Shown: positions 2,367 to 5,854 of the stretch, in pieces | Numbering within the stretch: position 1 is the first letter of the stretch | Layout: every line of letters starts with the position of its first letter | Source: a virus | Taxonomy: Duplodnaviria > Heunggongvirae > Uroviricota > Caudoviricetes | Strand: one strand, 5' to 3' | Length of the DNA: 8,762 bases | IMG/VR virus record: IMGVR_UViG_2734482780_000010 | The notes under the pieces: generated by a model | The model's input: only the letters and a program-made list of their open reading frames with translations | Told to the model about the DNA's origin: nothing | The model's database searches: none | Made by a program: the position numbers and the translations under genes

Positions 2367-3362
2367 GTGACCGTGAGAGCACTACTGACCCCTGAAATTG
2401 CCCCGCGTATGGGGATCGTATTGTTCAGGCCCGGTTCAGAGCTGATGCCCCTGTTTATGCAGGGGCGTGTACTGCTGGAGCCTGAGCCGGAGCATTATTC
2501 ATCTTTCGCCAGTGGTGCCGTTCCCGCGGCATCACAACCGCTGGCGGATGATCCTGCCGTTCGGGCCGTGTTCCGTAATGAGGCAGTGATTCGTCGTGCT
2601 GGTGGGGTGGAATGTCTTGAAAGCTGGTTACTTCGTGAAAAAGGCTGCCAGTGGCCTCATTCCGACTGGCACAGCGAGAACATGACCACAATGCGACACG
2701 CGCCGGGCGCAATCCGTCTGTGCTGGCACTGCGATAATCAGTTACGTGATCAGTTCACGGAGCGGCTGGAATCAATGGCAACGGATAACTGTGCCCATTG
2801 GGTGTTGTCTGTAGTCCGTCGGGATCTCGATTTTAATGATAACCATGCCGTGACAATGCCGGAACTGTGCTGGTGGCTGGTTCGTAATGACCTGGCGGAT
2901 GCCTTACCGGAAAGCGCAGCCCGTAAGGCACTGAGATTACCGAAGTCTGTTTTGCCGTCTGTCACCCGGGAAAGTGACCTTGTGCCTTCGGTTCCTGCCA
3001 CCAGCATTATCCAGGATAAAGCGAAAAAGGTGCTGGCGCTGAAAGTGGATCCGGAGTCGCCGGAGTCTTTTATGTTACGCCCCAAACGTCGTCGCTGGGT
3101 TAATGAACAGTACACGCGCTGGGTTAAGACGCAGCCGTGTGCATGTTGTGGAAAGCCAGCTGATGATCCGCATCATCTGATAGGCCATGGTCAGGGTGGA
3201 ATGGGTACAAAAGCGCATGACCTTTTTGTGCTGCCTTTGTGCAGAAAACACCACGACGAACTGCATGCGGATACCGTGGCATTTGAAGAGAAGTATGGCT
3301 CCCAGCTGGAGCTGATATTTCGTTTTATCGATCGCGCACTGGCGATTGGTGTGCTGGCCTGA
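2367..3362 (+). CDS. DUF968 family prophage protein (YdfU-like) with C-terminal Cys/His zinc-binding HNH-like motif
   Basis: 331-aa ORF starting 1 nt after the KilA-N stop (GTG 2367; alternatives GTG 2373 with the GAGGTG SD, or ATG 2410). C-terminal '[14 protein letters not shown]...[10 protein letters not shown]' cluster. Family assignment is from memory. Confidence 0.7.
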
Positions 3363-3379: not shown

Positions 3380-3763
3380 ATGCGTGATATTCAGATGGTT
3401 CTTGAACGTTGGGGAGCGTGGGCGGCTAATAATCATGAAGATGTGACCTGGTCGTCCATTGCCGCCGGTTTTAAGGGATTAATTCCTTCAAAAGTAAAAT
3501 CTCGCCCGCAATGTTGTGACGATGACGCGATGATCATTTGCGGGTGCATGGCCCGTCTGAAAAAGAACAACAGCGATTTGCACGATTTATTAGTAGATTA
3601 TTATGTAGTCGGTATGACATTCATGTCACTGGCAGGTAAGCATTGCTGCTCTGATGGTTATATCGGGAAAAGGTTACAGAAGGCTGAGGGCATAATTGAA
3701 GGGATGTTAATGGCATTAGATATCCGGTTAGAGATGGATATCGTTGTTAATAACTCTAATTAA
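3380..3763 (+). CDS. quuD: Late-gene antitermination protein Q (QuuD-type)
   Basis: 127-aa ORF beginning '[22 protein letters not shown]...', recognised as the DLP12 QuuD sequence. ATG 3380 with SD GGAGAAAG; the track's upstream start at 3365 is unlikely. Sits immediately upstream of the lysis region. Confidence 0.85.
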
Positions 3764-3796
3764 TATGCCAATTGTTTACTGAAAATTATTAAAAAT

Positions 3797-3814
3797 GGGG
3801 CGTTGCAACGCCCC
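3797..3814 (-). terminator. Rho-independent terminator for nmpC/IpeX transcription
   Basis: Perfect 18-bp GC-rich palindrome GGGGCGTTGCAACGCCCC; on the minus strand it is followed by a U-rich tract (ATTTTTAATAATTTTC). The plus-strand flank is A-rich, so it is poor as a plus-strand terminator. Confidence 0.5.
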
Positions 3815-3882
3815 CAAAAATAAAGGGTAATATATAACAGAAGGTTTATATAGTTAGAAGCAAGGTTGTGCTCCTAAAGGAA

Positions 3883-3950
3883 GTGGCTTGAGGGAGCCAC
3901 TTATATGTTGGGGAGGCAACGCCTCCCGCAACATATCTTTTTCGTAATCA
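3883..3950 (+). terminator. Tandem stem-loops; second followed by T5: candidate tR'-like terminator for transcripts leaving Q
   Basis: Hairpin 1 AAGTGGCT-TGAGGG-AGCCACTT (3883-3904). Hairpin 2 ATATGTTGGGGAGGC-AAC-GCCTCCCGCAACATAT (3905-3945) followed by CTTTTT on the plus strand. About 140-190 nt downstream of the Q stop, comparable to the lambda pR'-tR' distance. The same structures lie in the nmpC 3' UTR on the other strand. Confidence 0.4.
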
Positions 3951-3952
3951 GA

Positions 3953-5050
3953 TTAGAACTGGTAAACCAGACCTACAGCAACGATGTCATCAGTGCTTAC
4001 ACCGAGTGCTTTAGTGAAGTCATTTTTGTCAAGCAGGTTGATTTTGTAATCAACGAAAGTAGACATATTTTTGTTGAAGTAATAGGTTGCACCTACATCA
4101 ACATATTTGACTAAGTCCTGATCGCCCCATACTCCAAGATCCTTACCTTTAGATTGCAGGTAAGCAACGGACGGACGCAGACCGAAATCGAACTGATATT
4201 GTGCAACAGCTTCGAAGTTTTGAGCTTTATTAGCAACGAAGTGATCAGCAAATACAGTCATATTCTGGGTTTCAGAATAGGTAGTGGCCAGGTAAATGTT
4301 GTTAGCGTCATATTTCAGACCTGCGGCCCAAACTTCTGCATTTTTACCGGAAGCAAATACTTCAGGAAGAACTTTCCCTGCATTAACTTGAGTGTCGGTA
4401 CGATCAGATTTCGCATAAGTTGCACCGATACCGAATCCTTCGTATTCATAGGTAGCAGAGAAACCGAAGCCATCACCGTTACCTTCGGTGTAGTTATCGA
4501 AATCGCTACGATCGTTTTTGCCTTGGTACTGAGCAGCAAAGTTCAGACCATCAACCAGACCAAAGAAGTCGTTGTTACGATAGGTTGCAACACCAGTGGT
4601 GCGACCAGTCATGAACACATCTGTTTGGGTCCAGGTATCGCCACCGAATTCTGGCAGAACGTCAGTCCACGCACCGATGTCGTATGCTACACCGTAGTTA
4701 CGGCCGTAATCGATTGAGCCGTAGTCACCGAATTTCAGGCCTGCAAATGCAAGACGGGTTTTGTCTTTGGAGGAACCTTGAGATTCAGCGCGGTTGCCTT
4801 TGAATTCATATTCCCACTGACCGAAACCAGTCAGCTGATCGTTGATTTGGGTTTCGCCTTTGAAGCCCAGACGAACATAAGTAGTATCACCATCATCTGC
4901 ATCGTTAGAGGAAAAGTAGTGCTTGGCATTAACTTTCCCGTACAGATCCAGCTTGTTACTGTCTTTATTATAAATTTCAGCTGCCTGAGCAGACATCGCC
5001 ATCAGTACTGATGCAGCTACAGCAGAAATTGCCACTGTTAATTTTTTCAT
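3953..5050 (-). CDS. nmpC: Outer membrane porin, NmpC/OmpD/Lc family (intact)
   Basis: 365-aa ORF with signal peptide '[23 protein letters not shown]|AEIYNK', general porin motifs and C-terminal 'VGLVYQF' ending in Phe. No IS interruption. Lower GC than the flanking phage genes, consistent with a moron. Confidence 0.9.
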
Positions 5051-5638
5051 CGTGAGCCCTTTTTTTTGAACTATTATTAAAAAATGATGTCACTGCGCGA
5101 TAAATATTCATCTAATCAATGTGATTATTTCAAGATGTAAGTTTTAGTTTCTCATTTAATTTGTGAAGTAGATCTCTATTTTTATCTGAACTTTTTCTAT
5201 CGAAACCTATTTATGGCTCTTATTTGAACAAAAATAAATCTATTAGCTAATTTATATTAATGGCTGTTATTTATGGTGGTTCTATAATTCGTCTGTTTAA
5301 TTTAAACCAGCTAAAAATAACACTGGAAATTATTTATTGGTTATTTGTTGAAGTTTTCTTATGTATTTGTGGTGATGTTTTGAACACTCGGTAGCATTCT
5401 CATAAATATCATTCAGTGGTTTACGTACGTAAAAAATTGGTTATGCTGTTAAGAGTGGTTACTTCGTCACACAGCTTAAACCCGCCGTCGAGCTGGTTTT
5501 TCCATTTTTTGAGTCTCGATATTAGCTGATAACTCAATACCTGAGTTATTCACTGACTCGGAGTCAGTTACGTTTCTGCTTTTTTGCGATACGTTGTATT
5601 CCCTCAATTTACACCCGCTTTGTCTGCGAGGTGGGGTT
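5051..5638. promoter_or_regulatory. AT-rich intergenic region: nmpC promoter/leader (minus strand) and the region upstream of the lysis cassette with tandem hairpins
   Basis: About 590 bp, strongly AT-rich, no convincing ORF. Tandem inverted repeats ATAACTCA-ATACC-TGAGTTAT (5529-5549) and ACTGACTC-G-GAGTCAGT (5552-5568), followed by a T-rich tract ending in TTTTTT (5580-5585), then SD GAGGTGGGG before essD. Confidence 0.4.
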
Positions 5639-5854
5639 ATGAAATTCATGGATAAGTTAACAACTGGAGTCGCCTATGGCACCTCAGCAGGTAGTGCCGG
5701 TTACTGGTTTTTACAGCTGCTCGATAAAGTCACTCCCTCACAGTGGGCAGCAATAGGTGTGCTGGGTAGCCTGGTATTTGGCCTGCTGACGTACCTGACA
5801 AACCTTTATTTCAAGATTAAAGAAGATAAGCGCAAGGCTGCGAGAGGTGAATAA
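5639..5854 (+). CDS. essD: Class II holin/pinholin, phage 21 S-type, with dual-start motif
   Basis: 71-aa product '[24 protein letters not shown]...' with two TMDs. Met1 (5639) and Met4 (5648) give the Met-Lys-x-Met dual start of S21 (antiholin S71/holin S68). SD GAGGTGGGG upstream. The track's TTG 5594 start is rejected. Confidence 0.85.

Follow-up and report, generated by a model that had tools for sequence, protein, structure and literature searches.

The gap between Q and nmpC in a DLP12-type prophage as the probable IpeX region of a porin cassette, with the putative late promoter beyond nmpC

We analyzed a stretch of 8,762 nucleotides, here called the window, which represents the late-control region of a DLP12-type lambdoid prophage of E. 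coli. The 189-bp gap between its Q and nmpC genes is very probably the 3′ UTR and IpeX region of an nmpC moron, the late promoter PR′ being located at 5419–5501 and a cassette spanning 3740–5419 lying between the Q core and this promoter. An earlier note on this DNA had described the gap as an overlap of the late promoter with the IpeX region. The feature is real and its IpeX and terminator part is known biology, while the overlap with a late promoter is contradicted by the position of the PR′ homologue. The features referred to below are as follows.

1159–1548: rusA
1535–2365: KilA-N gene
2367–3362: DUF968 gene
3380–3763, plus strand: quuD (Q), late antiterminator of the Q21 family, 127 aa (Pfam PF06530, Q21 structures, 933W Q)
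3740–5419: moron cassette (inserted gene unit) of Q tail, IpeX spacer, nmpC and nmpC promoter region, delimited by DNA alignments
3764–3952: flagged gap between the Q stop and the nmpC stop, 189 bp
3791–3952, minus strand: nmpC 3′ UTR, IpeX small-RNA region (identity to K-12 DLP12 and PA-2, fold, Term-seq)
3814–3791, minus strand: intrinsic terminator of nmpC/IpeX with stem GGGGCGU/ACGCCCC (3814–3797), loop UGCA and AUUUUU (3796–3791)
3881–3902: hairpin AAGTGGCT-N6-AGCCACTT inside IpeX, 8-bp stem and 6-nt loop
3903–3942, plus strand: long hairpin and CTTTTT, probably terminating the Q/early transcript; read from the minus strand, it forms the 5′ hairpin of IpeX
5050–3953, minus strand: nmpC (Lc/OmpD-like porin), intact, 365 aa (Pfam Porin_1, E = 1.8e-156; RefSeq ‘porin’ in identical loci)
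5419–5501, plus strand: PR′ and Q-utilisation region, homologue of 933W/Sp5, between the nmpC start and essD; −35 TTTACG (5420–5425), 16-bp spacer, −10 TATGCT (5442–5447), predicted start about 5454, conserved block TAAGAGTGGTTAC (5450–5462), weakened hairpin (5481–5496) and TTTTT (5497–5501)
5648–5854, plus strand: essD, holin, first late (lysis) gene (RefSeq annotation of the identical locus), one of the lysis genes essD, rrrD and rzpD beyond nmpC

The TAA stop codon of the Q ORF occupies 3761–3763 and that of nmpC 3955–3953 on the minus strand, and the gap they enclose indeed has the size of 189 bp given earlier. Many E. coli chromosomes match the 2-kb segment 3300–5300 with 100% identity, and of 5,426 complete genomes, 2,468 cover at least 80% of this Q–nmpC query. 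An alternative upstream start of essD is present at 5639, in keeping with the dual-start holin/antiholin annotated in 434B. QuuD matches Pfam PF06530, the Q21 family as defined in PMC9388147, over the full length of the profile (E = 8.5e-54) and is 30% identical to Q21 of PDB 6P18/6JNX, the Q21 chains being recovered with E = 7.6e-08, so that both profile and structures identify it as a Q21-family member. Its closest characterised relative is the Q protein of phage 933W with 79% identity. Antisense inside quuD (3629–3600, minus strand), a sigma-70-like site reads GTGACA-18-CATAAT with 10 of 12 matches; its relative position is roughly that of paQ in lambda and phage 21. It may mean nothing, and the sigma-70 scan as a whole returned fewer sites than expected by chance.

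The annotation of phage 21 (OL657228) places PR′, the Q-binding repeats, the pause element and the terminator directly after Q, and that of 933W (AF125520) places pR′ across the Q stop with the arrangement TTTACG-16-TATCAT; in both phages, no more than about 10 bp separate the PR′ start from the Q stop. For the identical Sp5 prophage of strain Sakai, dRNA-seq and Term-seq have mapped a PR′ start that precedes tR′ by 258 nt (PMC7547250); in the Sakai sequence, this start is 7 nt past TATCAT. Alignment of the window to the annotated 933W pR′ region revealed a homologue at 5419–5501 with a local score of 64, compared to 21.2 ± 2.2 and a maximum of 31 for shuffled queries. The alignment extends from the −35 element to the promoter-proximal hairpin, the core is identical to the 933W-type block at 13 of 13 positions, and the window reads TTTACG-TACGTAAAAAATTGGT-TATGCT-GT-TAAGAGTGGTTAC...CCCGCCGTCGAGCTGG-TTTTT from 5420 to 5501, with transcription expected to start at about 5454. 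The QBE of phage 21 (ATTGAGCA/AATGAGCA) has no counterpart in the window, as is expected because the two Q proteins share 30% identity. Besides 933W and Sp5, the PR′ block is shared by K-12 DLP12, Stx phage 75/02 and 434B, a hybrid phage that is viable. Of 80 related IMG/VR loci, 79 have it 1638–1657 bp past the Q stop; in Stx phage 75/02, PR′ is likewise parted from Q by an inserted ORF. The literature (PMC7918800) also assigns control of the DLP12 lysis operon to a promoter region directly upstream of essD and to a Q-type antiterminator together with RpoE. The K-12 start-site sets contain no PR′ start at the predicted position of about 5454. The window hence shares a PF06530 protein, the PR′ block and a promoter-proximal hairpin with T-run with known late cassettes of the Q21 family, namely PR′-QBE-SDPE-terminator in phage 21 and the PR′ of 933W/Sp5 that yields StxS, but differs from them in that these elements lie 1.65 kb downstream, outside 3764–3952, and are separated from Q by the nmpC moron.

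Several observations concern the region just past the predicted PR′ start. In 933W/Sp5, a strong hairpin with a T7 run lies only about 27–50 nt after the PR′ start (L086, 1983–2005; L089, 773–795); this first hairpin is the one kept in DLP12, and the published tR′, where StxS ends, follows 258 nt past the PR′ start. At 5481–5501 of the window, GCTGG replaces the GCGGG of K-12 (L001, 9257–9277) and the pairing with CCCGC is incomplete. The start-proximal PR′ RNA folds with −8.4 kcal/mol here, −13.9 kcal/mol in K-12 and −21.9 kcal/mol in 933W, and each of the GCTGG and GCGGG alleles is found in about half of 79 related loci, which suggests that late or lysis expression may be leakier in one lineage. 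The PA-2 record J02580 annotates a CRP site (L090, 1730–1750) that maps onto GTGGTTACTTCGTCACAC at 5455–5475 of the window; this sequence, conserved just past the predicted PR′ start, may be a CRP-like dyad, a part of the Q-utilisation site, or both. Finally, a weak plus-strand 5′ end of 7 reads (Kim et al. 2012, PMC3415461) corresponds to window position 5511 (K-12 v2 576509), 57 nt downstream of the predicted PR′ start, 112 nt upstream of essD and past the hairpin and T-runs; it could represent the RpoE-dependent promoter of the lysis cassette or a processed end.

The alignments also define what separates Q from this promoter. When the Q genes of the window, 933W, 75/02 and ev087 are aligned, homology is lost directly after GAGATGGAT (3731–3739, encoding ...RLEMD), and homology to 933W is regained at TTTACG (5420); the 1,680 bp between these points therefore constitute a cargo cassette. 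From 3740 onwards, Q ends in seven cassette-specific residues, IVVNNSN*. At this junction, ev087 has a plus-strand terminator followed by the minus-strand lipocalin gene Blc, and Stx phage 75/02 has an ORF on the plus strand; each cargo version comes with its own short Q tail (window 3731–3739 and 5420; L004, 2880–3050; L087, 1870–2690). To judge by these sequences, cargo seems to be inserted recurrently at the junction past Q codon 120. Morons, a concept introduced by Hendrix and colleagues, are autonomous units of promoter, gene and terminator inserted between phage genes. The nmpC cassette resembles them: nmpC comes with a promoter and a terminator of its own and is expressed in the lysogen, and conserved phage blocks flank it on both sides, at a site where related phages have other cargo. 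Unlike them, it is oriented against the phage operons, and its insertion replaced the last few Q codons.

On the minus strand, the gap forms the end of the nmpC transcript. The perfect 18-bp palindrome noticed earlier is present at 3797–3814 (GGGGCGTTGCAACGCCCC, 9-bp arms), and the chance expectation for such palindromes in 189 bp is 189/4^9, or about 0.0007. It is followed on the minus strand by ATTTTTAATAATTTT and was reported by the terminator scan; the stem comprises seven pairs, six of them G-C, with AUUUUU directly after it, and a U-run is found on the minus strand only. K-12 coordinates convert to window positions by subtraction of 570576. The Term-seq data of Adams et al. 2021 for MG1655 (PMC7815308, Supplementary file 1) list minus-strand 3′ ends at 574367/574366, which correspond to 3791/3790, the last U of the AUUUUU run past the palindrome. 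This G+C-rich hairpin thus combines a U-run with mapped 3′ ends at the near-identical K-12 locus, which bears out its assignment as a minus-strand terminator, and the earlier prediction of a minus-strand transcript ending near 3785 is matched by the K-12 end at 3791. K-12 and many other loci differ from the window terminator solely in the loop at 3806–3807. Supplementary file 2 of the same study gives a region of Rho termination at 574331, equivalent to 3755 and antisense to the end of Q; therefore, part of minus-strand transcription passes the nmpC terminator.

IpeX was reportedly first described by Castillo-Keller et al. in 2006, in connection with DLP12 and phage PA-2. The gap is identical to the quuD–nmpC spacer of K-12 DLP12 at 185 of 189 positions, two of the four differences being within the terminator loop, and 97.9% identical to the region downstream of lc in phage PA-2 (J02580). 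These are the loci to which IpeX is assigned, and the identity to both is about 98%; the designation of the gap as nmpC 3′ UTR and IpeX region is correct and already published. According to a 2025 review (PMC12197685), IpeX is encoded by DLP12, has 167 nt and arises from the porin promoter within the porin transcript, from which it is then processed; further articles (PMC5069750, PMC3333887) cite it as a repressor of ompC/ompF. From the nmpC stop to 3791 there are 162 nt, or 167 nt if counted from 3957, and an RNA of the reported length would span 3957–3791 or 3952–3786. The window RNA accordingly shares with IpeX of DLP12/PA-2 the location directly 3′ of the nmpC/lc stop, the matching sequence, the Rho-independent terminator on the nmpC strand, the nature of a porin-transcript tail and a compatible length of about 167 nt. 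It differs from the K-12 locus in that nmpC is intact here and in PA-2 but split by IS5 in K-12, and in that the terminator loop is UGCA, completing the palindrome, instead of UCUC on the RNA. The nmpC promoter is active in K-12, where 331 reads support a start site 45 nt ahead of the ATG (Kim et al. 2012, Table S1, PMC3415461); this start site corresponds to about 5095/5096 on the minus strand of the window. The Cappable-seq and SMRT-Cappable-seq supplements have no entries at this locus. An Rfam search of the window returned no family at the gathering score and no IpeX family among the matches, those within 3700–4050 being sub-threshold chance matches. Small RNAs derived from 3′ UTRs are known, for example CpxQ, SroC and DapZ. 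As with these, the terminator here is common to the RNA and its parent mRNA. IpeX would probably be active in this particular strain.

The minus-strand RNA 3952–3786 (167 nt) is predicted to fold with −62.4 kcal/mol (z = −8.0), none of 200 shuffled sequences being as stable, and the plus-strand stretch 3839–3945 gives a z of −4.6. The tandem hairpins described earlier at 3883–3945 do exist but are better placed at 3881–3902 and 3903–3936, and the statement that they are usable from either strand did not hold, since the U-run of 3903–3936 (CTTTTTCG) is found on the plus strand only and that of the palindrome on the minus strand only. The long hairpin at 3903–3936 consists of 15 pairs with one bulged G (−20.8 kcal/mol) and is the strongest plus-strand combination of hairpin and T-run between Q and essD. 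Its plus-strand U-run has 5 nt, shortened to 4 nt in 13 of 29 distinct variant sequences. The curated K-12 Term-seq list (PMC7815308) holds no plus-strand 3′ end at 3903–3942, which we assume to result from weak transcription of quuD in K-12, and it contains a second minus-strand 3′ end at 574476, corresponding to 3900, 3 nt past the long hairpin on the minus strand. We infer that 3903–3942 is the probable end of the Q/early-right transcript when it is not antiterminated, with plus-strand termination at 3942. The 29 distinct gap versions come from 84 related loci and are all about 88–99% identical. Frequent substitutions affect the terminator loop (3806–3807), the long-hairpin loop (3920), the bulged base (3928) and the plus-strand T-run (3938), and the hairpin at 3881–3902 shows single variants only, in 2 of the 29 sequences. 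The 29 variants are too alike for covariation in the IpeX hairpins to show, and the comparison of paired with unpaired positions gave p = 0.25. On the plus strand, an ORF of 69 aa (3905–4114) runs antisense to the 3′ end of nmpC and starts within the long hairpin. The PA-2 annotation lists it as ORF1, and that of 434B gives a hypothetical protein and a ribosome-binding site for it; it is unlikely to be a gene.

The earlier note had located the late promoter and the Q-utilisation site inside the gap, so that late transcription would collide head-on with that of the porin and small RNA. In such an arrangement the gap would hold PR′, the Q-binding and pause elements and tR′ (3903–3942), with late transcription running antisense through nmpC. 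The immediate vicinity of PR′ and the Q stop in phage 21 and 933W speaks for it, as do the plus-strand hairpin with its U-run, the weak −10-like hexamers TAATAT and TATAGT, and the viable hybrid 434B, which carries the module and in which late transcription hence works in this layout. We nevertheless regard it as very unlikely. No plus-strand sigma-70 site within 3764–3952 passes the consensus scan, and a relaxed scan yields the weak pairs TTGCAA-19-TAATAT (3803–3833), with its 19-bp spacer, and GTAATA-16-TATAGT (3827–3854). The segment 3740–3960 reaches a best score of 14 against the 933W PR′ block, below the shuffle mean of 15.3 ± 2.6, whereas the clear homologue of the PR′ block of the closest characterised Q is found at 5419–5501, and PR′ of Stx phage 75/02 is also displaced from Q by an inserted gene. 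The PR′ homologue and the nmpC promoter are thus back to back and divergent, which contradicts the expected collision. We had ourselves considered a PR′ with −10 TAATAT at 3828–3833 and a start at about 3840. This choice was based on an ATAA(C/G)AG past the −10 common to 933W and ev087 and on the −10-like TATAGT downstream, the gap motif TAATAT-ATAACAG faintly resembling TATCAT-GATAAGAG of 933W, and it was dropped once the 933W-type block was found at 5419–5501.

The same hexamers might instead serve a weak, Q-independent plus-strand promoter (−10 TAATAT at 3828–3833 or TATAGT at 3849–3854) for an anti-IpeX RNA of approximately 85–105 nt that ends at 3942 and titrates or destabilises IpeX. The stable plus-strand fold with its terminator-like end would suit such an RNA, and 3815–3860 is almost invariant across the 29 sequence variants, but this invariance fits a constraint on IpeX or recent common ancestry equally well. 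Since the −35 elements or their spacing are poor, and neither a plus-strand 3′ end in K-12 Term-seq nor a start within the gap in the K-12 start-site list is found, we consider this RNA quite unlikely. The hairpins could also be mere terminators or insulators at the moron boundary, the 3′ UTR having no trans-acting small-RNA role where nmpC is intact. Morons typically bring their own terminator, the ev087 junction too has a plus-strand terminator before a convergent gene, and duplexfold reveals no significant complementarity of IpeX to the ompC, ompF and nmpC leaders (matched or bettered by 34, 10 and 40 of 200 shuffles, respectively), a crude test that ignores intramolecular structure and is therefore uninformative. 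A fold z of −8 and five hairpins are far beyond the needs of a terminator, however, and published genetics assign porin-inhibiting activity to this sequence; a purely insulating role is hence hardly credible to us.

In the preferred reading, that of an nmpC moron whose 3′ UTR fills the gap, minus-strand transcription would proceed from the nmpC promoter (about 5095) through nmpC into a highly structured tail, roughly 160 nt long, and stop at the intrinsic terminator 3814–3791. This tail would be IpeX and would lower OmpC/OmpF upon expression of the phage porin. The QuuD-responsive PR′ (start about 5454, plus strand) would lie beyond the nmpC start and back to back with the nmpC promoter (about 5095, minus strand); therefore, late transcription would diverge from nmpC, and Q-modified polymerases would never cross nmpC or IpeX. 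The plus strand of the gap would be entered only by the tail of the Q transcript, that is, of the early-right operon, and most likely represents nothing but the untranslated tail of this Q/early transcript, which most likely stops at 3903–3942 unless the polymerase carries N-type antitermination.

With convergent terminators at the Q end (about 3942) and the nmpC end (3791), the two transcripts would overlap by about 150 nt. This overlap, together with the K-12 read-through into antisense Q, means that the IpeX/nmpC tail could act in cis on Q. The nmpC 3′ UTR/IpeX might then double as a cis-antisense RNA to the Q message, by which porin expression in the lysogen damps Q and the late/lysis genes, a moron-supplied analogue of lambda paQ; we regard this as a rather unlikely possibility. 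The resemblance to the lambda paQ/oop antisense RNAs lies in IpeX being antisense to the convergent Q transcript tail and in the antisense read-through into Q, whereas an effect of IpeX on Q is speculative.

The corrected map places a porin gene and a small RNA between Q and the Q-responsive promoter in a very common prophage module of E. coli. Expression of nmpC and IpeX in lysogens would consequently be insulated from late transcription and be exposed to read-through from the early operon alone. A functional antisense relation to Q, if it existed, would tie a lysogenic-conversion gene to the control of lysis.
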